Part shown: positions 4,306 to 59,002 of the stretch, piece after piece
Position numbering within the stretch: the first letter of the stretch is position 1
How the letters are laid out: each line of letters begins with the position of its first letter
Position numbers and translations under genes: made by a program
Assembly (NCBI GenBank): GCA_041651055.1
Contig: JBAZJW010000001.1
Location: forward strand, 627,521-691,520
Direction of reading: 5' to 3'
Length of the DNA: 64,000 nucleotides
Origin: Minisyncoccota bacterium
GTDB taxonomy: Bacteria; Patescibacteriota; Minisyncoccia; Phycocordibacterales; UBA5272
The notes under the pieces: generated by a model
Databases searched by the model: none
The model's input: only the letters and a program-made list of their open reading frames with translations
Told to the model about the DNA's origin: nothing

Positions 4306-4335
4306 CGACCCCGAAGGGGTCGCTCTCTATTTTGC
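4303..4335 (+). terminator. rho-independent terminator
   Basis: AGAGCGACCCC-GAA-GGGGTCGCTCT hairpin followed by CTATTTTG. Confidence 0.7.
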
Positions 4336-4345
4336 CTTATCCCCA

Positions 4346-4351
4346 TATACT
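4346..4351 (+). promoter_or_regulatory. putative -10 (TATACT) within the conserved tatccccatatactaatcaaa upstream motif
   Basis: Motif shared with 7541-7563 upstream of the paralog at 7602. Confidence 0.3.
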
Positions 4352-4402
4352 AATCAAAAATTAGAAATAAGGAGTTATACTTACTTTATATTCTAATATC
4401 CT

Positions 4403-7400: not shown

Positions 7401-7456
7401 CTGGTATGGTGTATGACTTTACTCGTAACGCTATTAAGGTAGAGAGTTGTCAGTAA
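4403..7456 (+). CDS. giant secreted surface protein: PG-binding-like N- and C-terminal domains, right-handed beta-helix (pectate-lyase-like) repeats, two tandem Ig-like repeats, DUF4214-like segment
   Basis: 1017-aa ORF. Signal peptide MKKYILPVLLLALSFTNVQAQA; first ~130 nt nearly identical to 688-820. NN(T/I)I..N/G-rich parallel beta-helix repeats (NNTISCGNGLCGIGIDVG). LYNIFLRRNSDPSGELSFQNQL resembles DUF4214. C-terminal LQSFLIAKGLLAGNATGFYGDKTVEAVKAYQ domain. Confidence 0.85.
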   Translation: MKKYILPVLLLALSFTNVQAQAVPTTSSSCTDLSYNLGYGSNDGRTNGEVTKLQTFLSSLGYLKDKPNGYFGRSTFGALKSFQLSKGLTNSGYAGQQTRGVIKKMTCGSIPTSSMNSSDFKFPDQTSVLTKSSVLPKLVVSGTQSKPGLVLCGDGVVDKPSIDAGPILTSCFLANKNAGIIELLPGKYYIKSTIDIGNLSNITIKTKGVSSGSACLQVGSAPCAVLFATADNKGPVILKSEGASKLNLFYIAIDGNRLARWSPGTTPNWIKNNETDKYGTAYNAAIRYCDKCHFTGFASVRAPKGTGLEFIGADAVFDTTLFSDNGWQLSDWFSSNPEAGAFADGLTALISERIVIRNSEFSNNSDINLILGDAPGAVIENNIIKSDNKFVFAGLMVDNFMRINNVIKGRFDGTVIRNNTISCGNGLCGIGIDVGPYLWYAKKGETNVDVERVTGGIIANNTVFGARQGILVSGASGTTINNNTVNVAGTFKTPVGHYKKLNDYQTRECVTNSISASQGDTVTISDNKNSQGQTVVTTSNELRECHPYDLSDAVLDLSVPTIPPTPTAVITPTVTASWSPSIITSGQAATLTWSSTNATYCNVSHPNNTNTWNNAPTSRTTPYSSVITSDTTTVTCYNSTGQSDSKTVTLTVNPVILPTPTAVITPTVTASWSPSTITSGQAATLTWSSTNATYCNVSHPNNINPWNNAPTSRTTPYSSVITSDTTTITCYNQAGQSDSETVTLTVNQPSFCTDFTYSDYSLCQSGGIKTRSVVSSSPQGCTGGVPLTSISCSYVVKTTKVNTLYNIFLRRNSDPSGELSFQNQLSKGATLADVAWVLLTSPEGIATNGVNVQTMSVDSYVEFLYTAVLKRPSDVEGKRYWVATVNAGVTRKSALSSFLDSPESKITNSNLFLSYNLQNSSSISVDDKSIPTVLGDYISVPSCINLPQNLHRGAESSLVRLLQSFLIAKGLLAGNATGFYGDKTVEAVKAYQSSVNLPATGMVYDFTRNAIKVESCQ
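6092..6655 (+). repeat. tandem duplication of a 282-nt (94-aa) Ig-like domain unit inside the 4403-7456 CDS
   Basis: ccaaccccaacagctgtaataactcctaccgtcacagcatcctggtcacc... occurs at 6092 and again at 6374 with about 95% identity. Confidence 0.9.
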
Positions 7457-7513
7457 TAGGCTGTAGTTAATAGGTTTTGGTTGATGTGATACGAAATACA
7501 GAAAATATGAAAA

Positions 7514-7538
7514 GTGGCCACAAAGTGGCCGCTTTTTG
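7514..7538 (+). terminator. rho-independent terminator
   Basis: GGCCAC-AAA-GTGGCC hairpin followed by GCTTTTTGTG. Confidence 0.55.
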
Positions 7539-7553
7539 TGCCCCTATCCCCAT

Positions 7554-7559
7554 ATAATA
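7554..7559 (+). promoter_or_regulatory. putative -10 (TATAAT) in the conserved tatccccatataataatcaaa motif
   Basis: TATAAT 43 nt upstream of the ATG at 7602; ggaaggggg SD-like at 7573-7581. Confidence 0.35.
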
Positions 7560-7601
7560 ATCAAATAATGAAAGGAAGGGGGTATACTTAACTCATATCC
7601 T

Positions 7602-10600
7602 ATGAAAAAATATATTCTATCCACTCTTTTATTCGCCATATATCTTGGGTTTACAGGGGCTGAAATTGCATCAGCTGTAACGTCTTCTTATTCCATAGCT
7701 CCAGACGTAAACGTACCAGTAGTAACACTCTCTTCAAATGGAAAAAATGTTGTAAATGGTAGCACGGTTTTGATTTCTGATCGTAATGAAGCTACTCTGT
7801 CTTGGACAAGTGTGGGGGCAACGTCGTGTACCTTAAATGGTGTGGCTATACCAACTTCAGGTTCACAGTTATTTAGTAATTTCAAGATTGATTTTGGTTA
7901 TGCTGGTAACATTTTTAGTTGTACAAATGGATTTAAAAGTTCAAGGATACTATTTGACACACTCGGCCGGTCTACTAATGTAGAATCTATAAATATTAGA
8001 GTGATTCCACAATCTACATATGATGTGCGACCAGGAGAACCTGCTCAAATTGCTATCGAGGGTCAGGGTTTTAGCTCATGTACATTAGAATCTGAAGGGG
8101 CTCTTATTAAACTTGTCGAGCCATCAACTAATACAGTACACATAACGCCAGCCCTACAAAAAAATACAACATTCAAAGTTACTTGTACTAGGGGTGAATA
8201 TACTAAAGTTAAGGAGTTTACCATCGAGGTAATTCCAATTAATCCAGTTAAGTCAAAAACTTGCCCATTAGGACAAATCTATTATAGTGCTGAACCGGCC
8301 ATGGTTAATGGTACATATAATAGAGCTTATTTAGGGTGTGCCGAAGCCAAACCTTTTACATGTCTAGATGGATCCACTGTTTACACTAAGATTTTCGATA
8401 AAAGTTCTTCGTTCGCAATAAACGCTCAAGCGTGCTCATATCCAAATGTTACTGACAGTGCTTTATTCGTTAAGGTGGGAGAGGGGGAATATATAGATAG
8501 TCAAACAGAAGGAGTCGCTAATATCACCATTCCTGACAGTGCAAGCGGTAAAATTCTCGTGCTTTATAGTGATAATCCTGTGCATTGGATAATTGCCAAC
8601 CCAAATCATGTTCTCATTAAAAAAATACTTATCTTAGAATTAGAAAGTGGTCTAAATACTCAGCGTGCTGATGGGGATATTCAAAACATACCTCTAGAAA
8701 AGATAAAACTAGGTGGTCGTTTTGGGAATATTACTACTAACTTATTAGGAGGGTTCTATGGGGAGTTATCAGATGAGGTAAATACTTTTTTTAAAAATTC
8801 AGGAAATGATATCAGAGCTCTTATTGTTAGTCTTCTTAAACAAGGTATTTCTTTATCTCCTTACGACTACTATTATGCAAGCAGAGCAAGTGCTTTACCT
8901 GTTGGGGTATCTCCATCACCTACACTGTACACAAAGAAACAGAGTGAAATAGATGCAAAGAAAGCAGAAGAAGATGCAAAGAAAAAAGCAGCAGATGCTG
9001 CAATTGATCGTTTCTGGTTAGGATATAAATTTGCTTCTGGACTTAGTTTTCATAGTTATGTATACGAAAATAAAAATGTTTCAAATGATGCGATATTACA
9101 AAATAGCTATTTTTACTCAGCTGGACCTAGTCCTGTGCCTACGACAAAAGCAGAAGCGATCACTCGATGCAAGGATGACATATTGAGTAAAGTCGGCCAA
9201 GTAGCTCAATGTAAATGGAATGGAGAAGTCTTTGCTTCTTCAACTAATCCTTTACCTATGATGGATAACAAGCTTCTTTTTCCAAGTGGCGCATACAGTG
9301 AATATGATGGGTCTACGCTTATTTACTCTAAGCCTTCAATCTCTGCTATTAATGCAAAAGTTTTCTGTGACATGAGTAAGACCGTCCATCCAAATATTAA
9401 GTGTACTTTTGACGGAATTGATACATCGACACTAGATTTCGCTCGAAAAACTCCTGGATTTTTGCAGATATATGGAGATAGGTTTAGTGGATATTCTAAA
9501 TTTTTTAACTCTTTTGCTACTGGTAATGAAGGGTATAGTGCTGAAAATGACTGTATGCATTACTATACGTATCAGAAGCTTGGCTACATTATGCAAGAAC
9601 CCATTTTTACGGGGAGGTCACCAGAGAAGTACAATATAGAAAACTTTGACAAATCAAAAGCAAATGCTTTAAGAATGGCTTGTTATTGGAATGGACACTA
9701 CTTCTTTTCTTCGCCGGCAAATTACGACCCACTTAATAAACTACCTGAAAGTCTTCCCTCAATATCTTTGCCAGGAACATCATTGTTACGGGAAAGTGCG
9801 CCCTTTGTTGAGGTTAAAGCAAATAAAGGAACAATTCAACTTGGTGAATCTGTGACATTAAACTGGAACAGCATGTACACTGATTCTTGTTCTGCAAGCG
9901 GTGCTTGGAGCGGGGAATTAAGTACTTCTAGCAGTATTCGATCTGGATCTATTACTAAAACCCCAACAGCTCTTGGTGAACAAAAATATATTATTTCTTG
10001 TGCTGGGGTTGGAGGAACAGCAAGACATAGTGTGACTGTGAATGTGATATCTCAAAACGAAGTAAGTTCGTCGAATCAAACGAATACCCTTACACAGAAC
10101 ACTTCTGGTGAACGACTTATCACATCGTTAACTGCAAATCCTTCTACTATTTTTGGAAAAGGTACGACCACAATTACATTTACTTCATCTGGTACGGATT
10201 CTTGCTATATTGGAAATACCCGTTTATCGACTTCGGGAGCATACGTTACTCCTGTGCTTACTTATAATCCATCTTACTCTCCTTCGGTTATTTTTACACT
10301 TAAATGTTTTAAGGGTGAAAGTATGACTTCTAGAAATATATCAATCCTCGTCTCTTCTACTTCTTCTCCTTCTGCTGTATTACCAGCAGGTTGTACTTCT
10401 TCAACAATGTATAGTCCAACGACAGGGGTTCGTTGTCTTGCCACCTTAGCAACTACCCCTGTATGTAACTCAGAGCAGTATCTTGAAAACGGTGTTTGTA
10501 AGAATCTGACTCGTATTTGCCCTGATGGAAGAGTTATATCTGCCATGCTTAGTTGTGGTACATCAACGGTAAGCACTACTGCCACATCAAGTCTTTTGGT

Positions 10601-11063
10601 GTATCGTCAGTATTATGGACCCTCATTACAACAGCAAAGATCAAGAGTAACTAGATCTACAGCTATAAGTCTTTGTGCTGCTCGAGTACGTGCAATACAG
10701 GGACGAAAGACTTCTGGACTTACGACATACAACGATGTATCAAAGATACGATGCACCTGGGGAACAGAACAGCTTTACCCACTCAGGACTTCATCTTTAT
10801 CAGAAGGGTCTCTTGTCCTTGGTTCTTCGACAGTCTGTACCAGCCTCCCATACAACCTTCATCGTGGAGCTGAATCTCCATCAGTAGTTTCTCTTCAGAC
10901 ATTTCTTTCCTCTAAAGGATTCCTAGAAGGAGAAGCTACCGGTTTCTACGGAGACAAAACGGTAGAAGCAGTAAAAGCATATCAATCATCGGTAAATCTC
11001 CCAGCTACAGGAATGGTCTACTCTTTCACACGAGAAGCTATACGAGCTGAAAGCTGCCAGTAA
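7602..11063 (+). CDS. giant secreted surface protein with Ig-like repeats and C-terminal PG-binding-like domain
   Basis: 1153-aa ORF. Signal peptide MKKYILSTLLFAIYLGFTGAEIASA. Several L.W.S....C...G Ig-like units. Last ~75 aa almost identical to the C-terminus of the 688-4263 protein (…GMVYSFTREAIRAESCQ). Confidence 0.85.
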   Translation: MKKYILSTLLFAIYLGFTGAEIASAVTSSYSIAPDVNVPVVTLSSNGKNVVNGSTVLISDRNEATLSWTSVGATSCTLNGVAIPTSGSQLFSNFKIDFGYAGNIFSCTNGFKSSRILFDTLGRSTNVESINIRVIPQSTYDVRPGEPAQIAIEGQGFSSCTLESEGALIKLVEPSTNTVHITPALQKNTTFKVTCTRGEYTKVKEFTIEVIPINPVKSKTCPLGQIYYSAEPAMVNGTYNRAYLGCAEAKPFTCLDGSTVYTKIFDKSSSFAINAQACSYPNVTDSALFVKVGEGEYIDSQTEGVANITIPDSASGKILVLYSDNPVHWIIANPNHVLIKKILILELESGLNTQRADGDIQNIPLEKIKLGGRFGNITTNLLGGFYGELSDEVNTFFKNSGNDIRALIVSLLKQGISLSPYDYYYASRASALPVGVSPSPTLYTKKQSEIDAKKAEEDAKKKAADAAIDRFWLGYKFASGLSFHSYVYENKNVSNDAILQNSYFYSAGPSPVPTTKAEAITRCKDDILSKVGQVAQCKWNGEVFASSTNPLPMMDNKLLFPSGAYSEYDGSTLIYSKPSISAINAKVFCDMSKTVHPNIKCTFDGIDTSTLDFARKTPGFLQIYGDRFSGYSKFFNSFATGNEGYSAENDCMHYYTYQKLGYIMQEPIFTGRSPEKYNIENFDKSKANALRMACYWNGHYFFSSPANYDPLNKLPESLPSISLPGTSLLRESAPFVEVKANKGTIQLGESVTLNWNSMYTDSCSASGAWSGELSTSSSIRSGSITKTPTALGEQKYIISCAGVGGTARHSVTVNVISQNEVSSSNQTNTLTQNTSGERLITSLTANPSTIFGKGTTTITFTSSGTDSCYIGNTRLSTSGAYVTPVLTYNPSYSPSVIFTLKCFKGESMTSRNISILVSSTSSPSAVLPAGCTSSTMYSPTTGVRCLATLATTPVCNSEQYLENGVCKNLTRICPDGRVISAMLSCGTSTVSTTATSSLLVYRQYYGPSLQQQRSRVTRSTAISLCAARVRAIQGRKTSGLTTYNDVSKIRCTWGTEQLYPLRTSSLSEGSLVLGSSTVCTSLPYNLHRGAESPSVVSLQTFLSSKGFLEGEATGFYGDKTVEAVKAYQSSVNLPATGMVYSFTREAIRAESCQ

Positions 11064-19496: not shown

Positions 19497-19877
19497 ATGA
19501 TACAAGCAGGCACAAACGTAATAATCACAGACAACTCCGGAGGAAAACGCGGGCGCGTGTTTAAGGTGCTTGGTGGAAGTAAGCGTCGCTATGCATCACT
19601 TGGTGATATGGTTGTGCTTTCTGTTAAGGTTGCTGAACCTCGAAAGCAGACTAAGAAGAAGGATATTGTATACGCGGTTGTCGTTCGTACAACAAAGCAG
19701 GTGCGTCGTGAAGATGGATCATACATTTCTTTTGATGATAATGCTGTTGTTATTGTGGACAAGGTAAAGAAGGAACCGAAAGCAGGACGCGTATTCGGTC
19801 CTATTCCTCGTGAACTTTCTCTCACGGGTATCGATGGTTACAAGAAAATTGCTTCACTTGCTCCAGAAATCATCTAA
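19497..19877 (+). CDS. rplN: 50S ribosomal protein L14
   Basis: MIQAGTNVIITDNSGGKRGRVFKVLGG... Confidence 0.95.
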   Translation: MIQAGTNVIITDNSGGKRGRVFKVLGGSKRRYASLGDMVVLSVKVAEPRKQTKKKDIVYAVVVRTTKQVRREDGSYISFDDNAVVIVDKVKKEPKAGRVFGPIPRELSLTGIDGYKKIASLAPEII

Positions 19878-19898
19878 TACAATTTTAATAAAAAATAT

Positions 19899-20320: not shown

Positions 20321-20974
20321 ATGAGCATTCTGAATGGCTTCACACCGCAGACAAGAATTGGTCGTGTTTATCAACCAGGATTTCAATTCGACAATCACCC
20401 TTTCTTCGTCAGGACTTTGGAGGAAAAGGATGGAAATCCTCAGTCACCCACTGTGAATTTTTTCAACGGGGAAGGTTGGGAGGAAATTTTTCGTGGCAGT
20501 CTTCCTGCGAAGGTTGTAACGCTTCTGCTTGAGTGTTCGGTCACAGAGCAAAAGCGTTATGAAAGCTACAAGAATAATCCGACAGGAGAATACCGGCCGT
20601 ACAGAGGGCATGGTCCGGCCATGCGGGCCATCTCCCTCCTTTTTATTGCTTTAGCATGCCTTCTTCTTGGGTTGATCGTCACAGCAGTTCTTCTTGGCTT
20701 CGGGCCATACAAATCAATCCTTGTTGGAGTGTTAACGCTTGCGCTTTTACTGTGGCTCCCCAGTGTTTACTTCCGTGTCACCTCAAAAATCCTCAACAAA
20801 AAATTTGCACAAATTTTCGTTGACTATATGAAGTGTGACAAGTCCTTAAGGGGTAAACAGGGGGAAGTTGTCGCCGTTTTGCGCAAGGTGGAACTTTTGT
20901 GTAAAAATCAAAAGAGAGCAAATCTTGCGACTGTTGTGGATGTGGAAAAAGAAATCCTTCGCCTTCTGAGGTGA
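20321..20974 (+). CDS. hypothetical membrane protein (two predicted TM helices); inserted between rplX and rplE
   Basis: 217-aa ORF. Hydrophobic stretches AISLLFIALACLLLGLIVTAVLLGF and ILVGVLTLALLLWLP. GC content visibly above the flanking r-protein genes. No similarity recognised. Confidence 0.55.
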   Translation: MSILNGFTPQTRIGRVYQPGFQFDNHPFFVRTLEEKDGNPQSPTVNFFNGEGWEEIFRGSLPAKVVTLLLECSVTEQKRYESYKNNPTGEYRPYRGHGPAMRAISLLFIALACLLLGLIVTAVLLGFGPYKSILVGVLTLALLLWLPSVYFRVTSKILNKKFAQIFVDYMKCDKSLRGKQGEVVAVLRKVELLCKNQKRANLATVVDVEKEILRLLR

Positions 20975-20977
20975 AGA

Positions 20978-21018
20978 AAGTGCGCGGTCGAGAGACCGCG
21001 CTTTTGTTTGCCCTTTGT
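20978..21018 (+). terminator. terminator hairpin; second copy of the flanking direct repeat
   Basis: GTGCGCGGTCgagaGACCGCGCTTTTGTTTGCCCTTTG. Confidence 0.6.
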
Positions 21019-21075
21019 TGCAGAAAAGAGTAGGATTATTGTGTCGTTCCGTTAGTTTTTTGTTTATTTCCCGAA

Positions 21076-21687
21076 ATGGGAGAAAGGTTGGTTGCAGTCA
21101 TGACTTTTATCCTACCGCCACAAAGCGACAGTGATTATCCAGTACGAATGCTCGGCGCCATTCAGTCGGCCTGCGACGCCATGTCAGACGGCAAGCAGAT
21201 TCTTTTCGAGAAGGATCTCTCTGACTACTTCACTGCGCAAGAGCTTTTCCACATGCTTTGGGATATGCAAAATAGGACTGAAGCTCCTCGCGGCGATGAT
21301 TGTCTGGCTCCTCCAGATCCTCTGTACCATAGGGCCCCTGTTCGGAAGGTTGTTGGGAAGGTTCTTCAAGGAGAATGTCCGCCTTCCTGTGAGAATGATG
21401 AGCAGCGCGCCGAATGGTTCATGGGTATTCTGAACTCCTGCGTTCTCTATGAAAAGTTTTGGACCCGGACAACCGCTTATGTCACAAGCATGAAGGAAAT
21501 CGACCTGGGTGTTGATATCGGGGGATACAGCCAACCGGTCACCGTTCTGTTCGACTCCGAGAAGACAGGCCAAAACGCTCGCCCCATCGCGGAGCGGGTG
21601 GTCAAAAAGCTTTTGGACGCGGTGACTGCTCACGTGGAGCAGTATTTGAGAGATGTGTACACCTACCCACAAAGTCCTGCGCCCTGA
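21076..21687 (+). CDS. hypothetical protein (higher GC; start may be the ATG at 21103)
   Basis: 203-aa ORF with CTG/GCG/CGG-rich codon usage unlike the neighbouring genes; no recognisable domain. Confidence 0.5.
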   Translation: MGERLVAVMTFILPPQSDSDYPVRMLGAIQSACDAMSDGKQILFEKDLSDYFTAQELFHMLWDMQNRTEAPRGDDCLAPPDPLYHRAPVRKVVGKVLQGECPPSCENDEQRAEWFMGILNSCVLYEKFWTRTTAYVTSMKEIDLGVDIGGYSQPVTVLFDSEKTGQNARPIAERVVKKLLDAVTAHVEQYLRDVYTYPQSPAP

Positions 21688-21861
21688 TTTCGGGCAGGCA
21701 TCAACAAGGCGACGTCTCACAGACGGCCGCCTTTTCATTTTGTCTTTTTTATGGTAGATTATGAGTCTATCAACTAACGCGGGAATATCCGCAAGCTAAG
21801 CAGCGTATAACGTTCCGACAGGTATATCCTCAAGAACCAATCGTACTTACAAACAAAGTAT

Positions 21862-22422
21862 ATGGCTAAAACAACAGCAATAAAAAGTATTAAAGAAGTA
21901 GAGAAGGAAGCATTCGAAACCCTTGCAAAGGAATTTGGATACAAGAACAAAATGGCTGCACCTCATCTTGTGAAGGTTACTATTTCTGTTGCGACAGGAT
22001 CAGCAATGAAGCGTGACAAGAAGTTCAATGATCTCGTTATGGATCGTCTTATGAAAATCACAGGACAGAAAGCGACTGTACGTAAAGCAAAGATGTCTGT
22101 GGCGTCATTTAAGACACGTGAAGGGGATCCAATCGGTGTCGCAGTAACACTTCGTGGTGCTCGTATGTTCGGATTCTTGGACAAGGTATTAAATGTATCA
22201 CTTCCACGTACAAAGGACTTCCGTGGTCTCAACCGTACATCGGTGGACGCTATTGGAAACATGACATTCGGTATCAAGGAACACACTATTTTCCCAGAAA
22301 TTCACGATGAAGAATTGAAGGATGTGTTCGGTATGGCTATTACAATGGGGACGACAGCTAAGACAAAAGAAGAGGCGACTAAGTTTTTCGAATTGATCGG
22401 CATCCCTTTCAAGAAACAATAA
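21862..22422 (+). CDS. rplE: 50S ribosomal protein L5
   Basis: ...GFKNKMAAPHLVKVTISV...DFRGL...GIKEHTIFPEI. Confidence 0.95.
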   Translation: MAKTTAIKSIKEVEKEAFETLAKEFGYKNKMAAPHLVKVTISVATGSAMKRDKKFNDLVMDRLMKITGQKATVRKAKMSVASFKTREGDPIGVAVTLRGARMFGFLDKVLNVSLPRTKDFRGLNRTSVDAIGNMTFGIKEHTIFPEIHDEELKDVFGMAITMGTTAKTKEEATKFFELIGIPFKKQ

Positions 22423-22423
22423 T

Positions 22424-22500
22424 TTACTTCATCTACTTCGTTGTAAAAGATTTTTTCTCCACGCAACGTACTATTCGTACGTCTTGGTCGAATTCTGACT
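22424..22500 (+). repeat. copy A of a ~90-nt hairpin repeat family (CTTCATCTACTTCGTTGT...CGTACTATTCGTACG...)
   Basis: Shares an exact 17-mer TTACTTCATCTACTT(C/T)GT and the core CGTACTAT-TGTACG with copy D inside the 23S gene; homologous to copies at 28588, 33602 and 59003. Confidence 0.7.
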
Positions 22501-22533
22501 TTTTAACAAGAAGTTCTAATAATCAGAATGAAC

Positions 22534-22570
22534 AAAAAGCATCACACGGTAGTGTGATGCTTTTTGTTTT
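22534..22570 (+). terminator. rho-independent terminator
   Basis: AAAAAGCATCACAC-GGTA-GTGTGATGCTTTTTGTTTT. Confidence 0.75.
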
Positions 22571-22634
22571 ACCCCTCCCATACTCTGGTTTAGGAGCTCT
22601 TGACAATCCATTCAAAATACTGTAGGGTTGGGGC

Positions 22635-24032
22635 ATGAAAACAGTAATTATCAAAGGCTTTGTAGCATTGGGGGTTTTGGGGATTATGGCTCAAACAGCA
22701 ACATCATCGTTTGCTGCGTATTTCAACACGGATTCAATTCCTCGTTGCGATGTTCAAATTATCAATACATTACAAGTTGGTTCTGAAAGTAAAGAGGTAT
22801 ACGTTCTTCAGTCGCTTCTTTCACGAGCAGGATACCTTTATGCAACACCAAATGGTTATTTTGGTTTTGCGACAAAGTCTGCCGTTAAAAGTTTCCAGCG
22901 AGACAACGGTGTATATGCCACCGGTTCTGTTGGTCCAATGACCTTAAATGCAATAAACGAGCGTCTTTGTGATGCTGATGTACGAGGAGACATGCTTTCA
23001 TACACTGGTTATGGATATTCTTCATACAACGGCTATTCATCAGGCGTTACGTACGTTGATGCTTTCGATCCATACGTTCGCGTCGTCTCTCCGACTCCTG
23101 CAGTCGCTACCGTATTCGGTAATCCTCCTACAACCACAACGCCTGGAACATTTACTCCTTCAGGAACGGTTCCGGTTTCTATTCCTGCACTCACAACAGG
23201 GACATATTCAAACACCACAAATTACTCAACAATTCCTGCTACCACAAATACACAGATTGCTAGTACGAATGTCATTTACAATCCTTCAGCTGGATACACC
23301 TACGGTATCGTTCCACAGTCTGGTGTATTGACTATTCTTACACCACTTGCAAACAGTGTTTACAATGAAGGTGACACTGTGACACTCTCATGGACAACAA
23401 GTAATCTTACGGTTACACAGTACCAGATTCTTCTTGAAAATAAATCAACAAATCAGTCAAAGGTTGTTGCTGTTACGTCGACAAAGAGCGCATCATTTGT
23501 TCTTACAAAAGAAGTTCTTGATGCCGTATGTTCTGGAGCGTGTGATAACAATAACGTCGGATCCTTCCGCATCGTTATTGCGACACCTATTGTTGATATA
23601 GCGGGAACTGTATCTACATTCCGTGCTGCTATTTCACCGATTACGATTAACCGTCCATATACGACATTTGCCAATGTAGGAATCACAGGAAGTAAAAACC
23701 CTGTTAATTCCGGAGAAGCTTTTAGACTCTATGTAAGTGTGCCAACACCTGTGTACAATTACACACCAAGTTACAATCAGTATTCATTCAAGATTCGTGC
23801 TGTATGCATCAACAATGTTCAGGTGAGTATTGCAGGTGTGCCATGTGGTCAGGATTTTACAATGCCTGTCACATCAGCATATTTCCAGCAAGAAATTCCT
23901 GTTATGATGACGAACACAACATGGTATCGTCAGAATATTTCCTTCGAAATTAATGCCTTCACTTCTACAGGGCAACTCGTAGGTACTGCAAGTACAACAG
24001 TAAGTGTTAACCCTGCACCATTTGCTTGGTAA
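22635..24032 (+). CDS. secreted protein with N-terminal PG-binding-like domain; inserted between rplE and rpsN
   Basis: Signal peptide MKTVIIKGFVALGVLGIMAQTATSSFA; C.VQIINTLQVGSESKEVYVLQSLLSRAGYLYATPNGYFGFATKSAVKSFQRDNGV...C. Confidence 0.75.
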   Translation: MKTVIIKGFVALGVLGIMAQTATSSFAAYFNTDSIPRCDVQIINTLQVGSESKEVYVLQSLLSRAGYLYATPNGYFGFATKSAVKSFQRDNGVYATGSVGPMTLNAINERLCDADVRGDMLSYTGYGYSSYNGYSSGVTYVDAFDPYVRVVSPTPAVATVFGNPPTTTTPGTFTPSGTVPVSIPALTTGTYSNTTNYSTIPATTNTQIASTNVIYNPSAGYTYGIVPQSGVLTILTPLANSVYNEGDTVTLSWTTSNLTVTQYQILLENKSTNQSKVVAVTSTKSASFVLTKEVLDAVCSGACDNNNVGSFRIVIATPIVDIAGTVSTFRAAISPITINRPYTTFANVGITGSKNPVNSGEAFRLYVSVPTPVYNYTPSYNQYSFKIRAVCINNVQVSIAGVPCGQDFTMPVTSAYFQQEIPVMMTNTTWYRQNISFEINAFTSTGQLVGTASTTVSVNPAPFAW

Positions 24033-26505: not shown

Positions 26506-27069
26506 ATGCAAATACATGAAATAAAACGCGTACACGCGAATAAGAAATCAAAGCTCGTCGGTCGTGGAGGAACACGTGGTAAGACTTCAGGTCACGGAGG
26601 AAAGGGACAGACTGCTCGTGCGGGACACCGTGTCCGCCCAGCTATGCGTGACATCATCAAGAAGCTTCCAAAGTTGCGTGGACATGGAAAGAACCGATCA
26701 GTTTCAGTATTCTACCGTGGCCCAGAAGCAGTGGTGAACGTCGGTGTGCTTAATGTCTTCAAAACAGGAGATGTGGTAACACCTACAGCACTTATTGCAA
26801 AAGGACTCATCGGTGAATCTTTTGGAAAGAATCCAAAGGTAAAGATTCTCGGAAATGGTGAACTTACTGTCGCTCTTTCATTCGAACGATGTGATGTTTC
26901 AAAGACAGCACAAGAGAAAATTGAAAAGGTGGGAGGAAAAGTAACTGTTGAAGTTAAACCAAAACCACAGTCAGATGAACAGTTGAAGAAAATTGCTGCC
27001 AAGAAAGCTGAAAAGCTTGCGAAGAAGGCAAGTAAGAAGGGAGGGAAGACTGCTCCTAAGAAGAAATAG
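26506..27069 (+). CDS. rplO: 50S ribosomal protein L15 with KA-rich C-terminal tail; follows rpsE directly (no L30)
   Basis: GRGGTRGKTSGHGGKGQTARAG pattern. Confidence 0.9.
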   Translation: MQIHEIKRVHANKKSKLVGRGGTRGKTSGHGGKGQTARAGHRVRPAMRDIIKKLPKLRGHGKNRSVSVFYRGPEAVVNVGVLNVFKTGDVVTPTALIAKGLIGESFGKNPKVKILGNGELTVALSFERCDVSKTAQEKIEKVGGKVTVEVKPKPQSDEQLKKIAAKKAEKLAKKASKKGGKTAPKKK

Positions 27070-27213
27070 TCAAAAAGTAATATTTTAGCGAATCACTTAG
27101 TTGTTACAGGATTTTTCTCAGTCGCTGCACTAAAATGTACGTCTTCTTCCAAAAATTCTTAGACTCCTTGTGTTTCATCTAAAATCTTCCTTTTTGCAAT
27201 ATAGAAATACAAC

Positions 27214-27250
27214 AAAAGAGCGGCCACGAAGTGGCCGCTCTTTTGTGTTT
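27214..27250 (+). terminator. rho-independent terminator between rplO and secY
   Basis: AAAAGAGCGGCCAC-GAA-GTGGCCGCTCTTTTGTGTTTT. Confidence 0.75.
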
Positions 27251-27269: not shown

Positions 27270-27298
27270 TCGACCGGAGGCTGTTCCCGTGCTATAAT
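27270..27298 (+). promoter_or_regulatory. putative promoter TCGACC-17-TATAAT with TG extension (TGcTATAAT); the secY ATG lies ~10 nt downstream, so the transcript would be leaderless or nearly so
   Basis: TGCTATAATGG at 27290-27300; ATG at 27308. Confidence 0.45.
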
Positions 27299-27307: not shown

Positions 27308-28576
27308 ATGAAAACAATCAAGGCTATTTTCTCTGACCGTTCACTCCGAAACCGAATCTTTTTCGTTATCGGTATTCTTATTATTACTCGCATTCTTGCA
27401 GCTATTCCAATCCCAGGTATTGATGCATCGAACCTTGCTTCTTACCTTCAAAATCAAAACAGTAGTTTCCTTGGAATGCTAAACGTACTTTCAGGTGGAG
27501 GTATCGCTACACTTTCTATCGTGATGCTCGGTGTCGGTCCATACATTACCGCATCGATTATTATGCAGCTTATGACGGTGCTTTCTCCTCGCCTTAAGGA
27601 GATGTATCAAGAAGAAGGGGATGCGGGACGTCGTCGTTTCGTACAATACGGAAGACTTATCTCACTTCCTTTCGCAGTGCTTCAGGGGTTTGCTTTGATT
27701 ACGCTTCTTGTTCGTCAAAATGTCATTCCTGCACTTTCTATAGAAAGTATGACAACAAATATTATTATTGTGACGGCTGGAACCATGCTCATGATGTGGC
27801 TCGGTGAACAGATTAATGAAAAAGGTATTGGAAATGGAGTATCTCTTATCATTTTCGCAGGTATCGTTGCAGCTCTTCCAAAGAGTGTTGGACAATTTTT
27901 CCTTGCATTTGATGTTTCTCAAATTCCAATGCTTGTTGGACTTCTCGTGCTATCACTCGTTGTGATTGCTGGTATTGTGTATGTAACAGAAGCAGAACGA
28001 CCAGTTCCTGTAACCTATGCTCGCCAGTCACGTGTCGGTGGAGCAGCAACGCTTACGTCTTCTACATATCTGCCACTTCGCCTCAACCAGGCTGGTGTGG
28101 TTCCTATTATTTTCGCGGTTTCAATTCTTTTATTCCCACAATTAATTGGTCAGCTTTTTGCGACATCGTCTCAAGCATCTCTTCAGGCTTTTGCACGAAC
28201 AATGAATGGTCTTCTTACGAATCAGTGGATTTATGGAGGTCTCTATTTCTTCCTCGTTGTATCGTTTACCTACTTCTATACAGCGGTGATGTTTGATCCA
28301 GATCAGACAGCTGAGAATCTTCAGAAGAACGGCGCGTTCATTCCAGGATTCCGCCCAGGCTCTGCTACTGCTGAATACATTGGATATGTGCTTGCTCGTG
28401 TGACACTCTTTGGTGCAGTGTTCCTTGGTCTTATTGCAGTGCTTCCAGTTATTATTCAAGGGTTAACAGGGCTTACTGCTATACAAGTTGGAGGTACATC
28501 ACTTTTGATTGCGGTGTCAGTGGTGCTTGATTTGATTAAGAAAATCGACGCTCAACTCTCTATGCGCGAGTACTAA
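27308..28576 (+). CDS. secY: preprotein translocase subunit SecY
   Basis: 10 TM helices; IIPIIFA-like motif (AGVVPIIFAVSILLFPQ) and other SecY signatures; start at MKTIKAIFSD. Confidence 0.93.
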   Translation: MKTIKAIFSDRSLRNRIFFVIGILIITRILAAIPIPGIDASNLASYLQNQNSSFLGMLNVLSGGGIATLSIVMLGVGPYITASIIMQLMTVLSPRLKEMYQEEGDAGRRRFVQYGRLISLPFAVLQGFALITLLVRQNVIPALSIESMTTNIIIVTAGTMLMMWLGEQINEKGIGNGVSLIIFAGIVAALPKSVGQFFLAFDVSQIPMLVGLLVLSLVVIAGIVYVTEAERPVPVTYARQSRVGGAATLTSSTYLPLRLNQAGVVPIIFAVSILLFPQLIGQLFATSSQASLQAFARTMNGLLTNQWIYGGLYFFLVVSFTYFYTAVMFDPDQTAENLQKNGAFIPGFRPGSATAEYIGYVLARVTLFGAVFLGLIAVLPVIIQGLTGLTAIQVGGTSLLIAVSVVLDLIKKIDAQLSMREY

Positions 28577-28587
28577 CTAAGCTATTT

Positions 28588-28672
28588 GCGAACTGCTTTG
28601 TTACGGAGCCTCGCGTGCTCGTCACCGTACTAGTAAGTACGACTCCTCGCACGCACTCCGTGCCTCGCATTT
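28588..28672 (+). repeat. copy E of the ~90-nt hairpin repeat family
   Basis: CTTTGTTACGGAGCCTCGCGTGC...CCGTACTAGTAAGTACGAC...GCACGCACTCCGT: outer stem complementary but with a sequence different from copies B-D; conserved inner CGTAC..GTACG hairpin. Confidence 0.6.
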
Positions 28673-28700
28673 CATCAAATATCTTAGTTTAGTAATATAG

Positions 28701-28730
28701 CAAAACCGCCCTTTGGGCGGTTTTGCTTTC
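28701..28730 (+). terminator. rho-independent terminator
   Basis: AAAACCGCCC-TTT-GGGCGGTTTTGCTTTC. Confidence 0.7.
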
Positions 28731-28759
28731 ATTGGAAGAGGTGTATACTTAAGATTATT

Positions 28760-29290
28760 ATGGAACCAGAACCAAGACCGGCGCATCAAGAAAAATCAGT
28801 AAACAGATTAGAGCCAATGGAGGCGAAGAAGATAAGAGACGCAAGAAGTCGTATTTCCCATACTTATGAAACCGTTGGTTCATCTGAAGAAGATTTAGAA
28901 AAATTAACAACAGAAGAAAAGAATGTTTTTTATGAAGCAGAACTAACAGCTGCTCAAGCTGATTTAAAGTCACTCAAAGAATTTCAGGATTTCTACGTTA
29001 AAACACTTAACTATTTACCGGCAGATGATAAGAATTCTTTGCTGGCATTTGAAGAGAACCTAAAACACGGGTTATTAGATACACAAAGGAAGTGGATAGT
29101 TTCTTATCCGGAGGGAGATTTACAGGAAATGAAAGATGGTGTCGACGAAGAGATTGAGACTATTTGTAAAAACCCTTCTCAAATAAGAGCTCGTCTATTT
29201 GATAAAATAGAAGCGTATACATTTTCAGTTGATTCAATATCAAGAAGAATTGAAACGATAGAAGCTAGTCTAAAAGGTTTAAGAGGTTAA
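28760..29290 (+). CDS. hypothetical acidic protein inserted between secY and adk
   Basis: 176-aa ORF, helical/charged composition; no domain recognised. Confidence 0.5.
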   Translation: MEPEPRPAHQEKSVNRLEPMEAKKIRDARSRISHTYETVGSSEEDLEKLTTEEKNVFYEAELTAAQADLKSLKEFQDFYVKTLNYLPADDKNSLLAFEENLKHGLLDTQRKWIVSYPEGDLQEMKDGVDEEIETICKNPSQIRARLFDKIEAYTFSVDSISRRIETIEASLKGLRG

Positions 29291-30870: not shown

Positions 30871-33591
30871 ATGAACACTCCGTTTACTACCCCCGAAGAA
30901 GAAATCAGTTTTCTTCGCTCACAAATTAAAGATAAAGTAGAAAAGGCAAAAGGCTTCGAAGGTCGCTTCACCGAGAAAGATCATGCACACGAAGTGGTAC
31001 GTGATTATCGCGAACTTCCTTTAGAAAAAGTAGTGGCACCGATAGCACAGGTTACAGCAGGTGAAACACATCGACTTCTCGAATGGCTCACTCCGCGAGA
31101 TACGGATGCGCAAGTACAAATGCTTTCACAGGTTATGGCAGACAAAGGAATAAAGAATGCATTTGTTATGGCAGAAAAGATGAATGATCCGCAGCTCGAA
31201 GATGACTTCGAGCGCTTTGTTGTGCAGTATCTTGTTTCAGGACATGAAATAAGAAACAATCTTTCCAAAGATGTATGGAAAGCTCTTCATATGAAGTTGT
31301 TTGAAATTGTGCTTCCAGATGCACAAGAAGGGCAAGGAAAACAGGCCAAAGAAATGATGGCGCTAATGGAACAATGGTATGCCTCGATGCAAGCGCTTGC
31401 GAGTGATGTGCTCAACAAAGAGAAGAATTATTATTCACTAGAGCTTGCGGTGGCGAATGGTTCCACGACAGCATCATTTTATTGTGCGGTGCATATCGAT
31501 TACGCGGCACTGTTTGAAAAGGTGGTACTCGGTGTATTTCCACAGGCCCAAGTCAGAGAACAGAAAGATGACTATAATATTTTCCATGCTCATGCGATCA
31601 CAGCAGCATCATACGCGACACATAGCACGCATCCGGCACTTCCTATCAAGACCTATGAGACCATGGAGGCTGATCCGATGGCACTTATCATTTCTTCCTT
31701 CACACGAATTGTAAAAGAAAATGAAGGACTTGCTCTCCAGGTGTTGGTGCGTCCAGCGGGGGATGTTTTCGCGAAGCGTTTTGGTGAAATGTTGGAAGAC
31801 TTACGTAAAGGGGAAACGCTCAAGCGTGTACTCGACAAGCAAAGCATACTTAAAGAGTCTCTCCATATTCTTGGTTTGATGTTTGAATCAACGAAAACAA
31901 AAGAAGAGATTGAAAAGAAAAAAGCAGAAGGAACGACCTTCGTGGATGAAAGCGCCCTCAAGCATGTACAAACAAAACTTTCAAAGACAATCATCGAAAC
32001 AAATATTCGTATTGTTGCTTCGGCGACGAGTTTGGTGCGGGCACAAGCGATACGCACCGATCTCGAGGCTGCTTTCTCACAGTTCACAGAAGTCGGAGGA
32101 AACAGCGTCATCTGGAAAGAAGTAGAGGGGCGTAAGCAGAAGGCGATGCTTCACCGCTTTTCATATCGTTTATGGAATGAAGACGAAAGTTATCCACTTA
32201 ACCTTGCTGAAATTGCTTCTGTTTTTCATTTCCCTTCACAGTCAAAAGATGTGGCCAATGTTCGTTCTTCCTCAGCCGCTACTGCACAAGCTCCATCTGA
32301 TATGCCTGCCGATGGAATTGTTCTCGGAATCAATAAATCCAGAGGTCAAGAACAAACTATACATTTTGGACGTGAAGATCGTATGCGTCACATGTATGTT
32401 ATCGGTCAGACGGGTACAGGAAAGACCGTGTTCATGAAGAATTTGATTATTCAGGATATAAAAAACGGCGACGGTTGTTGTTTCATTGACCCGCACGGAA
32501 ATGATATCCAAGATATTTTGGCGAACATTCCTCCAGAACGAGCGCAAGACGTTATTTATTTTGACCCAGCATATATGGCACGTCCAATGGGGCTCAACAT
32601 GCTTGAGTATGATAGGAATTACCCAGAACAAAAGACATTCGTCGTGAATGAACTCTTGGGAATATTCGATAAGCTGTTCGACATGCGAGCAACAGGGGGA
32701 CCAGGATTCGAGCAGTACTTTCGTAACGCGACATTACTCGTGATGGAGCATCCTGAAAGTGGTAACACGCTCCTTGATATTTCTCGTGTCTTTTCAGATA
32801 AAGATTATCGTGACTACAAACTTTCGAAATGTAAGAATCCACTCCTTGTACAGTTTTGGCAAAATGCAGAGAAGACAACAGGTGATCAAGGGCTTCAAAA
32901 TTGGACTCAGTACGTAAATAGTAAATTTGATGTCTTTATGTCAAACGACATTATGCGGCCAATTATTGCTCAAGAAAAGAGCGCCTTTAATTTCCGCGAC
33001 ATAATGGATAGTAAGAAAATCTTTTTGGTGAATCTTTCAAAGGGTCGTCTCGGGGATAAGAATGCAAGTTTACTCGGTCTTATTATTGTGGGAAAGTTTT
33101 CACAGGCAGCCCTCTCTCGCGTGGATATGTTCGGGAAACCGATGAATGATTTTTATTTGTACATTGATGAATTCCACAACGTCACCACAAACGCAATCGC
33201 CACCATTCTCTCTGAAGCCAGAAAATATCGTCTCTCACTTACTATCGCGCATCAGTACATTGGACAGTTGGAAGAAAGTATTAAGGGAGCAGTGTTTGGT
33301 AACGTGGGTACTATGGCTATATTCCGTGTTGGAACAGATGATGCGAAGTATTTGGAAACACAGTTTACGCCAACATTCACGTCAAACGATATTATGAAAA
33401 TAGAAAACTACCATGCGTATCTCAAGATGCTTGTCCGAGGTGAACCAAAAAAGCCTTTTGATATTGTCGCCCTTCCACCCCAAATAGGGGATGTATCACG
33501 TATCGATTCATTGAAAGAGTTGAGTTATTTGACGTACGGGCGACCGGCGGAAGAAGTTAACTCAGAGATTATGAAAAAATACTCTCTTTAA
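30871..33591 (+). CDS. large P-loop NTPase of the TraD/TraG/VirD4-HerA-FtsK-like superfamily with a ~480-aa N-terminal domain of unknown function
   Basis: Walker A MYVIGQTGTGKTVFMKN; Walker B LYIDEFHN; ARKYRLSLTIAHQYIGQL motif typical of TraG-D_C / HerA-like ATPases; no N-terminal TM segments. Confidence 0.6.
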   Translation: MNTPFTTPEEEISFLRSQIKDKVEKAKGFEGRFTEKDHAHEVVRDYRELPLEKVVAPIAQVTAGETHRLLEWLTPRDTDAQVQMLSQVMADKGIKNAFVMAEKMNDPQLEDDFERFVVQYLVSGHEIRNNLSKDVWKALHMKLFEIVLPDAQEGQGKQAKEMMALMEQWYASMQALASDVLNKEKNYYSLELAVANGSTTASFYCAVHIDYAALFEKVVLGVFPQAQVREQKDDYNIFHAHAITAASYATHSTHPALPIKTYETMEADPMALIISSFTRIVKENEGLALQVLVRPAGDVFAKRFGEMLEDLRKGETLKRVLDKQSILKESLHILGLMFESTKTKEEIEKKKAEGTTFVDESALKHVQTKLSKTIIETNIRIVASATSLVRAQAIRTDLEAAFSQFTEVGGNSVIWKEVEGRKQKAMLHRFSYRLWNEDESYPLNLAEIASVFHFPSQSKDVANVRSSSAATAQAPSDMPADGIVLGINKSRGQEQTIHFGREDRMRHMYVIGQTGTGKTVFMKNLIIQDIKNGDGCCFIDPHGNDIQDILANIPPERAQDVIYFDPAYMARPMGLNMLEYDRNYPEQKTFVVNELLGIFDKLFDMRATGGPGFEQYFRNATLLVMEHPESGNTLLDISRVFSDKDYRDYKLSKCKNPLLVQFWQNAEKTTGDQGLQNWTQYVNSKFDVFMSNDIMRPIIAQEKSAFNFRDIMDSKKIFLVNLSKGRLGDKNASLLGLIIVGKFSQAALSRVDMFGKPMNDFYLYIDEFHNVTTNAIATILSEARKYRLSLTIAHQYIGQLEESIKGAVFGNVGTMAIFRVGTDDAKYLETQFTPTFTSNDIMKIENYHAYLKMLVRGEPKKPFDIVALPPQIGDVSRIDSLKELSYLTYGRPAEEVNSEIMKKYSL

Positions 33592-33601
33592 GTCATAAAT
33601 C

Positions 33602-33705
33602 ACTTCACCCGCTTTGTTGTGAAAGATTTTTTCTCCCGCAATGTACTATTCGTACATTTTGGTCGTAAAAATCTTTCACGCCTCGCGCTTGAAGCAATTT
33701 CTGAC
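33602..33705 (+). repeat. copy B of the ~90-nt hairpin repeat family
   Basis: GCTTTGTTGTGAAAGATTTTTTctcccgcaatGTACTATTCGTACattttggtcgtAAAAATCTTTCAC: 13-bp outer stem plus conserved inner hairpin. Confidence 0.7.
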
Positions 33706-33740
33706 TTAAAGTAACCTCGTCTGATTGAAATAAGTATTCA

Positions 33741-34664: not shown

Positions 34665-34670
34665 ACTACA

Positions 34671-34755
34671 GCAATACAAAAGCACGACACCTTCGGTGTC
34701 GTGCTTTTGTATTGCTGTTCAGATTCGGTGTCGTGCTTTTGTATTGCTGTTCAGA
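34671..34755. terminator. bidirectional terminator (21-bp perfect stem) between the bPH gene (+) and efp (-), with a 32-nt tandem duplication of its 3' arm
   Basis: gcaatacaaaagcacgacacc-ttcg-ggtgtcgtgcttttgtattgc; ttcggtgtcgtgcttttgtattgctgttcaga repeated at 34692-34723 and 34724-34755. Confidence 0.7.
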
Positions 34756-34924
34756 AAAATCAAGAAACTGTTTCAGCTACGAGGAGCCTAGAAATTTTTC
34801 AAAGAAGTCGTACACGCTAGTACGGCGACTGCGAAAAATTTCGTAGTTCGAGACGGCTTGGCCGCGAAGATATCATAAGCTAACAAGCTTGTGACAAAAA
34901 GTAGATGGAATAGTTTATTGGTTT

Positions 34925-35506
34925 TTACTTAGAACGTTCGAAATACTCACCAGTCTCTGTATTCACAATAATCTTATCTCCCACCTCGATAAAGAATGGT
35001 GTTGTAATCTGTGCGCCTGTTTCGATGGTCACCAACTTTCCTCCACCTGAAGCTGTGTTTCCTTTAATTGCAGGAGGGGCATCTTTTACTTCAAATGTCA
35101 TCTTGATAGGAAGTGTAATACCGATAACACGCTCTTCATCGTCATATTCAAACACCTTCGTATCGACAAGTGTATTATCTTTGAGATACTTCACACCATC
35201 ACCAATAACATCTGCATCGATTTCGAATCGTTCTGCACGATTGTTTGGATCACAGAACCAGTATTCACCTTTATTTGCGAAAAGGAAAAGTGCTTCTCGT
35301 TTTGATATGTCAGCTTCTTCTGCTGTGTCTGATGCATGGAATGAACTTGAAATAACCTTTCCATTGAGAAGGTTGCGCATTTTTACTTGGTTTTGTGGCT
35401 TACGCTTTTGTGTACGTGCCACATGAGATTCCAAAATTTCAAACGGTTGACCATCTACAAGAATGAACTTGCGAGGTTTGATTTCATCATAGTCGAGTGT
35501 TGCCAT
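34925..35506 (-). CDS. efp: elongation factor P
   Basis: MATLDYDEIKPRKFILVDGQPFEIL...FCDPNNRAERFEID...KGNTASGGGKLVTIETGAQI. Confidence 0.9.
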   Translation of the reverse strand: MATLDYDEIKPRKFILVDGQPFEILESHVARTQKRKPQNQVKMRNLLNGKVISSSFHASDTAEEADISKREALFLFANKGEYWFCDPNNRAERFEIDADVIGDGVKYLKDNTLVDTKVFEYDDEERVIGITLPIKMTFEVKDAPPAIKGNTASGGGKLVTIETGAQITTPFFIEVGDKIIVNTETGEYFERSK

Positions 35507-53303: not shown

Positions 53304-53536
<233 letters not shown>

Positions 53537-58993: not shown

Positions 58994-59002
58994 AATCGAG
59001 CG

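Follow-up and report, generated by a model that had tools for sequence, protein, structure and literature searches.

What does it mean when the same long hairpin stands behind unrelated genes and, in addition, inside the 23S rRNA gene of one bacterium? The question is raised by a 64,000-nucleotide stretch of the genome of a Minisyncoccota bacterium (contig JBAZJW010000001.1, positions 627,521 to 691,520), here called the window, in which a first-pass annotation had noticed five such hairpins. Coordinates refer to this 64-kb window unless they follow an L-number (L015, L153 and so on), which labels a locus in another genome. The hairpins fit a non-coding interspersed repeat family of the candidate phyla radiation (CPR, or Patescibacteria), of the same kind as ERIC, the Rickettsia palindromic elements (RPE) and the Correia elements. 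Comparisons between genomes show that the elements multiply and get lost again; that they persist almost solely in sense orientation and in transcribed but dispensable places, namely behind stop codons and in lineage-specific 23S insertions; and that their fold is kept by compensatory change even at orthologous sites. The sense bias, the position at the stop codon and loops that are conserved across CPR classes exceed the usual picture of such repeats. This bias, this position and these mismatched loops imply that the folded single strand is recognised by something. With moderate confidence we favour a joint explanation in which a selfish repeat is copied, or has its core exchanged, by a loop-reading activity, and is co-transcribed and looped out of its host transcript, where a ribosome opening the basal stem could affect the 3′ end.

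All five copies of the first-pass annotation are present where it had placed them, their four quoted outer-stem pairs are complementary as written, and the inner hairpin CGTAC-loop-GTACG is common to the copies. Copy A and the rRNA copy (copy E) share the exact match that had been described (TTACTTCATCTACTT identical, followed by C or T, then GT). The notion of a family thus stands, while the proposed size of about 90 nt and the count of five give way to a unit of about 121–126 nt in typical copies (171–187 nt in D and G) and to seven copies; the unit is longer because the sequences flanking the quoted stems pair too, as folding with wider flanks reveals. With at most one mismatch allowed, the motif GTACTANNNGTAC is expected 2.5 times in the window and found 12 times, a number attained in none of 100 shuffles, and the rods of copies B, C, E and D have folding energies of −41 to −60 kcal/mol. 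A first covariance model, built from B, C, E and D (the extra module of D removed) on an RNAalifold consensus of 19 pairs, finds seven window copies when run with filters off, adding F and G, with E-values of 2e-26 to 2e-5; a second model from 56 sequences recovers the same seven. An eighth candidate at 19835–19897 (E-value 0.08–0.11) overlaps the end of rplN, is followed by a spacer of just 21 nt and is attributed to chance.

Each copy folds into a single long imperfect hairpin, or rod. At the base lies a stem whose sequence differs from site to site; it is followed by a conserved junction, 5′ ..AUCU-RC-KUUGU.. opposite 3′ ..CGCCUMG-YAUCU.., with pyrimidine-rich mismatches and one conserved U.G. 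The middle consists of two stems whose sole requirement is pairing, and the apex is a hairpin of the form UCRNC-GUAC-loop-GUAC-GNCUY. Conserved letters are found in the loops (U.CUU.GU on the 5′ side, CCU.G.A on the 3′ side), on either side of the apical stem (UC..C and G.CU) and in the 3′ basal strand (CAA..U), and at one pair position 39 of 56 sequences have U.G and just one has a Watson-Crick pair. Since the conserved letters are those that are unpaired or mismatched, it is the folded single strand that is recognised.

Covariation in the stems had been proposed from a handful of copies, together with the view that it implies a constrained structure, and both proposals hold up in larger samples. 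RNAalifold detects compensatory change in 11 of 19 pairs among four window copies; in two larger sets, one of 51 sequences selected by pattern and one of 25 retrieved by synteny and independent of the search pattern, 16 of the 19 pairs are changed on both sides. In the pattern-selected and synteny-retrieved sets, respectively, 90.7% and 92.8% of the cells are paired, compared with 65% and 69% after shuffling and 29–54% and 28–53% when the partners are slid. The covariation scores of 0.57 and 0.60 (0.14 and 0.18 in shuffled alignments) are attained by 0 of 500 shuffles in either set, and several pairs take all four Watson-Crick types.

The family extends well beyond this genome. An exact pattern for the apical hairpin, scanned over 185,579 species genomes, matched 66 loci; the covariance model confirms 51 hits in 37 of these, from about 30 assemblies, and finds 23 further hits in syntenic loci, so that the search suggested by the first-pass annotation has yielded seven copies in the window and many in related CPR genomes. 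The assemblies are labelled as Saccharibacteria, Paceibacteria, Zambryskibacteria, Nomurabacteria, Parcubacteria, Peregrinibacteria and Peribacteria. A hit in Tahibacter (L013, 27 bits) is a false positive, and three pattern matches on viral contigs (L150–152) are not elements. Two metagenome-assembled genomes (MAGs) carry odd labels: L059 is called ‘Acidimicrobiales’, yet its S12 and S7 are Paceibacteria-like (79–82% identical to those of L012), and the ribosomal genes of L051 are CPR-like. One lineage outside CPR may carry a copy, as the orthologous element-like hits L033 1525–1651 and L056 3747–3871 (about 40 bits) lie 280–390 nt upstream of an ADP-forming acyl-CoA synthetase gene whose relatives are labelled Deltaproteobacteria/Desulfobacterales. 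At L067 5625–5885, two complete elements of different subtypes, each closed by a basal stem of its own, stand head to tail with 6 nt between them.

The position of the element relative to genes follows a simple rule. In 53 of 66 locus hits, the 5′ edge of the element coincides with the end of a sense open reading frame (ORF) of 70 codons or more, an arrangement that is rare in the antisense control, and the stop codon lies 10–27 nt ahead of the conserved junction, the start of the core, in 50 of 54 cases. The upstream genes are housekeeping genes of many kinds, encoding L5, L6, L10, L15, S7, S8, S12, S15, EF-P and SecY as well as penicillin-binding proteins, MreB, FtsZ, GyrB, AlaRS, NDK, MurG and RNase J, and the majority of copies stand behind non-ribosomal genes. 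The elements occupy the space from the stop codon to whichever terminator or gene comes next. Downstream, 39 cases have a co-directional gene, which commonly begins 5–40 nt past the rod, 20 have a convergent gene and 7 have none. Two further candidate regularities were discarded: the stop codons (TAA/TAG/TGA 70/24/6% against a background of 57/26/17%) show no significant bias (p = 0.07), and sequestration of a downstream Shine-Dalgarno motif in the 3′ arm is ruled out, no such motifs being present.

The copies in the window illustrate the rule. Copy A (22423–22501, plus strand; 43 bits, E-value 1.4e-7) starts 1 nt past the rplE stop codon (22420–22422), and copy F (27069–27197, plus; 53 bits, E-value 4e-10, 70 bits with the second model), which is new, lies between rplO and secY, starts on the last base of the rplO stop codon and has an ortholog at L072 3694–3820. 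The rod of copy B (28571–28694, plus; −48.7 kcal/mol) closes over the secY stop codon (28574–28576), and that of copy C (33586–33711, plus; folding z −7.6) over the stop codon (33589–33591) of a 906-aa gene for a VirD4-like/DUF8128 protein. Copy G (34749–34935, minus; 35 bits, 44 with the second model) is likewise new, a long form sense to efp, whose stop codon on the minus strand (34925–34927) sits within the basal stem; its orthologs stand behind efp in L076, L072 and L069. Copy E (52703–52823, plus; 120 bits) is sense to the 23S rRNA, and copy D (58982–59152, plus; −59.9 kcal/mol) is a long form after rodA with an extra two-hairpin module at about 59020–59082. GC skew is positive throughout the window, yet copy G lies on the minus strand together with efp, like its orthologs in three relatives; orientation therefore tracks transcription and not replication. 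Separate canonical terminators follow 2–32 nt past A, F, B and G (22531–22568 after A, 28700–28726 after B, a hairpin at 34669–34717 after G), so the rod itself is not the terminator; nor does a U tract, as expected of an intrinsic terminator, directly follow it.

The closure of the rod spans the stop codon in folding, and the extent of this pairing was measured against a control in which flanks were swapped between loci. Coding nucleotides are paired at 12.6 observed versus 9.0 in the control, so that most of the apparent pairing of the 3′ flank deep into the coding region is an artefact of folding, and pairing of the stop codon alone is enriched (1.24 versus 0.45 of 3 nt). Individual loci go further. 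The basal stem of copy D pairs the last three rodA codons and the stop codon (GGTCTCGAGTAAAAT) with ATTTTACTCGAGGCC; after rodA in L154, the base is a perfect 20 bp, GGGCCTCGAATAAATTGCCT with AGGCAATTTATTCGAGGCCC, taking in the last three to four codons, and the corresponding window stem has 14 of 15 pairs plus a U.G. Where the last rodA codon differs synonymously (GAG/GAA), the 3′ arm has C/T to match, and secY of L076 has a 21-bp base including AATATTAG. The C-terminus of RodA, NEF(V/L)GLE*, is unchanged in L153, which is without the element, and SecY ends in ..REY* at filled and empty sites alike; since these ends are the same with or without it, the element did not replace the coding end. 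Rather, the 3′ arm is fitted to the coding end afterwards, through selection or through templated correction within the palindrome.

Gain and loss are seen most directly behind secY. Among 14 relatives (SecY 68–83% identical) the site is filled in 7, in addition to the window, and empty in 7, where the stop codon is followed by 30–60 nt and a terminator; at about 66 more distant loci it is empty throughout. Between close relatives the copy number ranges from 0 to 3 per 11–17 kb. Six copies at different loci of JAYSUD01 are mutually 75–97% identical, compared with just 30–69% among the window copies, and the elements recur after secY, efp, rpsL and rodA in several genomes. Decayed copies occur as well: A and L081 have lost part or all of an arm, L074 has degenerated and L069:14303 is without its apex. 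Copy A, of the C type, is truncated by a deletion of about 31 nt from the 3′ arm that spares the 5′ arm and the apical hairpin, and AATT(T)CTGACTT, which in copy C comes after the rod, here directly adjoins the apical part. The core subtype, moreover, differs between genomes at the post-secY, post-efp, post-rodA and helix-63 sites. The nearest relative of copy E is the copy after rplJ in another MAG (L060, 86% identity), and that of copy C the helix-63 copy of L154 (77%). Within one subtype, the orthologous post-secY copies of L070, L074 and L075 show three compensatory double changes. Nor do the copies belong to some longer duplicated segment.

Extra modules are found within some rods. The modules of D (59020–59082, plus) and G (34830–34892, minus) measure about 50 nt, form two hairpins each and are about 72% identical; as they are inserted at different points of the rod, the module may be a second, nested small element. 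Additional branches are also present in L081 and L066:7414. Next to copy G, at 34690–34755 (minus), TCTGAACAGCAATACAAAAGCACGACACCGAA stands twice in a row; this 33-nt tandem duplication links the 5′ half of the terminator hairpin with the final 7 nt of the copy.

The copy within the ribosome can be read against the same background. The 23S gene measures 4243 nt (model 2925), and within helix 63 an insertion of about 454 nt (52691–53144, plus), located between GCCCUCACCACUUU and AAAGUGGUGGGGGC, folds as two arms (dG −193 kcal/mol, z −12.4). Copy E is the first; the second arm (about 52826–53144) is unique sequence and not a repeat. The syntenic rRNA-pepA-rodA loci of two relatives (PepA 67–70% identical) are informative here. 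L154 (Nomurabacteria, GCA_037134695.1) has the same insertion with the element at exactly the same place, its core being of the C subtype and its outer stem orthologous with a compensatory change (GCAGTGA/TCACTGC versus GCATCGA/TCGATGC); it also carries the element after rodA, and a second sense copy within another 23S insertion that is lacking in the window. L153 (GCA_040384045.1) has the helix-63 insertion and lacks the element both there, where the empty site reads TTTAAA^CAAAGCGGGG, and after rodA. L015 has no helix-63 insertion at all. With the insertion present without the element in L153 and absent in L015, the hairpin is a passenger nested in a pre-existing rRNA expansion; all copies within 23S are sense. 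Filled and empty orthologous sites, decayed copies and copies that are 75–97% identical are best accommodated by the last of the possibilities raised in the first-pass annotation, a small mobile element that also entered the rRNA gene.

A group I intron was considered as the carrier of copy E and rejected, the group-I-like matches all falling outside 52691–53144. These matches are of note in themselves: one (54329–54641, 41 bits, below the gathering score) lies within a 482-nt 23S insertion at 54202–54683 that is absent from L153 and L154, and a second lies at 53332–53535 (17 bits). Both relatives have another insertion (L153 2239–2612, L154 4695–5293), which corresponds in position to window 54108/54109. 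Saccharibacteria are reported to be mostly without such introns (PMC11270868). Domain III of the 23S rRNA further contains a long AU-rich, near-perfect hairpin (52476–52549) that attracts spurious miRNA-family matches on both strands.

How might such an element work? The relevant single strand would be the transcript, and a trans-acting activity that reads the conserved loops may copy the core or exchange it. In an mRNA, closure of the rod over the stop codon would leave the insertion structurally looped out; a terminating ribosome would open the basal stem and free the conserved 3′ CAAUUU strand, and this opening could alter how the upstream cistron is processed at its 3′ end, or how stable that end is, as has been proposed for ERIC in Yersinia (PMC2229807). 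The 23S copy would be one more tolerated insertion that enlarges the existing helix-63 expansion.

Several observations weigh against a selfish repeat acting in this manner. Neither a transposase nor a reverse transcriptase nor an integrase was found in the window, and no mobilising gene among the 51 ORFs around the multiplied JAYSUD01 copies. At the filled helix-63 junctions of the window and L154, the one alignable site pair, there is no direct repeat, and filled and empty sites share no conserved terminal sequence. Two copies are antisense, one in the 23S–5S spacer of L040 and one upstream of the L015 23S. Outside the conserved U.G, wobbles comprise 17 G.U and 16 A.C with no strand favoured; RNA is therefore not proven over single-stranded DNA. 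Both alignments used for counting pairs were fitted to the model, and the synteny set includes four seed sequences; model-fitted alignments raise pairing somewhat without accounting for the diversity of pair types. Templated correction of quasi-palindromes can also produce compensatory change, with no selection involved. Finally, loop conservation across classes and near-exclusive sense orientation exceed what selfish DNA needs and suit a host function equally well.

Such a host function is the most serious competitor. The element could act in cis as an RNA signal at the 3′ ends of genes, read by a conserved RNA-binding protein or an RNase III-type enzyme and serving transcript processing or stability; we regard this as possible but doubtful, and the same holds for its corollary that the signal punctuates transcripts, trims the 23S insertion and spreads just occasionally by duplication. 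The RNase processing site that had been suggested at the outset is plausible, and the intercistronic RNase III sites of phage T7 offer a precedent for processing by an enzyme that also matures rRNA. The strong covariation, the loops and U.G conserved across CPR classes, the strict sense orientation and fixed place at the stop codon, upstream housekeeping genes that are probably highly expressed, the recurrence after secY, efp, rpsL and rodA, the upkeep of stems in place and the uniformly sense 23S copies all suit it. However, close relatives lack the element at the same sites with no visible replacement, about one-fifth of the copies in the pattern-independent set are visibly broken (A, L069, L074, L081), copy number is very uneven among relatives, and separate canonical terminators already make the 3′ ends. 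Trimming, moreover, cannot depend on an element that L153 lacks while retaining its helix-63 insertion. The host signal and the selfish repeat are not mutually exclusive, because a domesticated repeat would show both sets of features.

A bolder possibility, which we think unlikely, is that the rod belongs to a hitherto unrecognised class of structured RNAs and functions, or is mobilised, at the RNA level, as a CPR ‘gene-end’ module that is either self-processing or copied by a factor into abundant transcripts. If true, replication-independent sense orientation, the stop-codon position and the exchange of cores between sites would be explained jointly. We give a slim chance to an RNA-level mobile or self-processing element, in which a small structured RNA that might itself be a catalyst, or depend on a ligase or reverse transcriptase, would integrate into abundant transcripts and become fixed via cDNA. 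Sense-only copies in mRNAs and rRNA irrespective of replication direction, hosts that are abundant transcripts, internal loops that resemble the cores of small ribozymes in a general way, and the failure to find a DNA transposase, a consensus of terminal inverted repeats or a target-site duplication all agree with it; the antisense copies in two rRNA spacers do not, no reverse transcriptase is seen nearby, and Rfam offers no match to a ribozyme or intron family even at E-values up to 10.

Recognition of a folded single DNA strand, as in attC sites or the hairpins of HUH (Y1) enzymes (REP/RAYT, IS200/IS605), with mismatches that mark the active strand, is slightly less probable still. Placement directly 3′ of ORFs in one orientation, an attC-like length, structure and mismatches conserved above sequence, and core subtypes that are swapped at a constant site, as a recombination site would permit, speak for it. 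Against this, the upstream genes are core genes in conserved operon order and not cassettes, arrays are lacking, neither an integrase nor a Y1 transposase is nearby, the conserved part is apical and internal and not in basal R boxes, no RYYYAAC/GTTRRRY ends are visible in the sequences read, and orientation follows transcription, not replication. The last alternative, raised as rRNA mimicry in the first-pass annotation, that feedback regulation works through one protein with binding sites on the helix-63 hairpin of 23S and on the mRNA copies, draws on the same hairpin standing in 23S and in the 3′ untranslated regions of ribosomal-protein genes, and is largely refuted and scarcely credible: the insertion is lineage-specific, the 23S copy is absent from L153 (with the insertion) and L015 (without it), the second 23S copy of L154 sits in another insertion, the 23S site holds different core subtypes in relatives, copy E is an ordinary member, and the upstream genes are diverse, most copies standing behind non-ribosomal genes.

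The surroundings of the copies have features of their own. The leucyl aminopeptidase encoded at 55548–56927 is identical to a protein of a ‘Candidatus Paceibacterota bacterium’ MAG, and the nearest relatives carry the label Nomurabacteria. S5 is followed directly by L15, with no L30 gene; absence of L30 is typical of CPR bacteria. Non-ribosomal ORFs interrupt the ribosomal-protein operon at 20321–24032 and 28760–29290: two unassigned ORFs (217 and 203 aa) in the rplX-rplE gap, a 465-aa PG_binding_1 protein in the rplE-rpsH gap and an unassigned 176-aa ORF in the secY-adk gap. At 688–11063, very large ORFs of 1191, 1017 and 1153 aa follow one another, all three with PG_binding_1 domains and one also with DUF4214 and beta-helix domains. 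Copy F is followed by a strong intrinsic terminator (27212–27246), a promoter-like site (27270–27298; TCGACC-17-TATAAT with TG) and the secY ATG at 27308. At many downstream genes of the window (e.g. 59160–59176 and 28735–28762) and of related loci a TATAAT-like box stands 7–12 nt before the ATG, without a Shine-Dalgarno motif, a combination that suggests leaderless mRNAs. Between 23S and 5S lies a 103-nt tRNA-like gene (55209–55311, plus; Rfam tRNA, 42.8 bits, no call by ARAGORN) with normal acceptor, D and T arms and an extra hairpin of about 31 nt between the D and anticodon arms, and the equivalent spacer of L154 holds a tRNA-like gene of 124 nt (6022–6145).

The significance of the family is both biological and practical. 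It is a well-supported structured element found across many lineages of the largely uncultivated CPR that has no Rfam family, and it provides a testable handle on CPR RNA metabolism, namely on the reader of the loops and on any cutting of the rod. It is unusual among bacterial repeats in its sense placement directly past the stop codon and in a basal stem that evolves in step with the last codons, and the helix-63 site indicates that rRNA insertions can grow by nested entry of a mobile hairpin into an existing expansion. For annotation, such long hairpins inflate the length of 23S genes, and they mislead the calling of starts: the ORF list runs secY upstream through copy F to a GTG at 27170, whereas the real start is the ATG at 27308.

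Where, then, does the element stand among known systems? In Rfam 15, a gathering-threshold scan of the window returns just 23S, 5S and a tRNA, and scans at E-values up to 10 (copies B and C) and up to 1 (copy E) produce generic miRNA-hairpin noise only. Miniature inverted-repeat transposable elements are defined by conserved terminal inverted repeats derived from an insertion sequence (IS); the ends of the CPR element are self-complementary and differ in sequence at each site, its conserved blocks are internal, no IS or transposase is present in the window or near the JAYSUD01 copies, and the one alignable site pair at helix 63 shows no target-site duplication. REP/BIME sequences are GC-rich palindromes of 20–40 nt with a GTAG or CGTC head and a RAYT transposase; the unit here is 121–187 nt with 30–46% GC and no such head, and Pfam scans of the window and of the ORFs around the JAYSUD01 copies reveal no Y1 transposase.

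Closer parallels exist in part. attC sites measure 57–141 nt and stand directly 3′ of an ORF in fixed orientation, with the fold and specific mismatches conserved over sequence. The CPR element shares this place, orientation, length and conserved fold with mismatches, but it stands as single copies behind core genes (rplE, rplO, secY, efp, rodA) in conserved synteny, its bases are variable and its apex conserved, no integrase accompanies it, and copies occur in rRNA. The intervening sequences (IVSs) known from 23S belong to helices 25 and 45 and are not known to recur behind genes, and the intercistronic hairpins of T7 have internal loops and are handled by one enzyme that acts on rRNA and mRNA. 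With IVSs the element has in common the extra extended hairpin at a 23S helix tip, and an extra stem-loop of this type is found at the helix-63 tip, in copy E and in L154; unlike an IVS, the element is repeated behind genes, and the helix-63 insertion of L153 is without it.

The best fit is with the co-transcribed palindromic repeats of other bacteria. Correia/NEMIS elements of Neisseria are hairpin-forming repeats of 100–155 bp that are co-transcribed with genes, and their RNA hairpin has been proposed as an RNase III substrate that regulates neighbouring mRNAs (PMC2229807); they differ in conserved 24-bp terminal inverted repeats, a TA duplication and IHF/promoter motifs, none of which is seen in the CPR element. 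RPEs, of 105–146 bp, tolerate insertion in essential and even protein-coding genes (PMC2229807). Like the CPR element they are palindromic repeats of reduced genomes for which no transposase is known, but they lie in frame within ORFs and are translated, whereas the CPR element stands behind the stop codon or in rRNA and leaves coding ends untouched. ERICs are non-coding, intergenic, imperfect palindromes of 127 bp that are co-transcribed and influence the upstream mRNA in an orientation-dependent way, which has been attributed to ribosomes opening the hairpin close to the stop codon (PMC2229807). The CPR element resembles the ERIC/IRU repeats of enterobacteria in size and in forming a single long imperfect hairpin. 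ERICs, however, occur in both orientations and have TA ends and target-site duplications, whereas the CPR element is nearly always sense with no target-site duplication seen, has a site-specific basal stem and spans several CPR classes; the two are set apart on these features. We found no description of such a CPR hairpin repeat in the literature searched, and the words ‘hairpin’, ‘intergenic’ and ‘repeat’ were not found in a survey of CPR rRNA insertions (PMC11270868). Co-transcribed interspersed palindromic repeats are thus a known kind of element, to which the CPR rod adds what is apparently an undescribed family, with its breadth across CPR, its stop-codon rule and its nesting in rRNA insertions.

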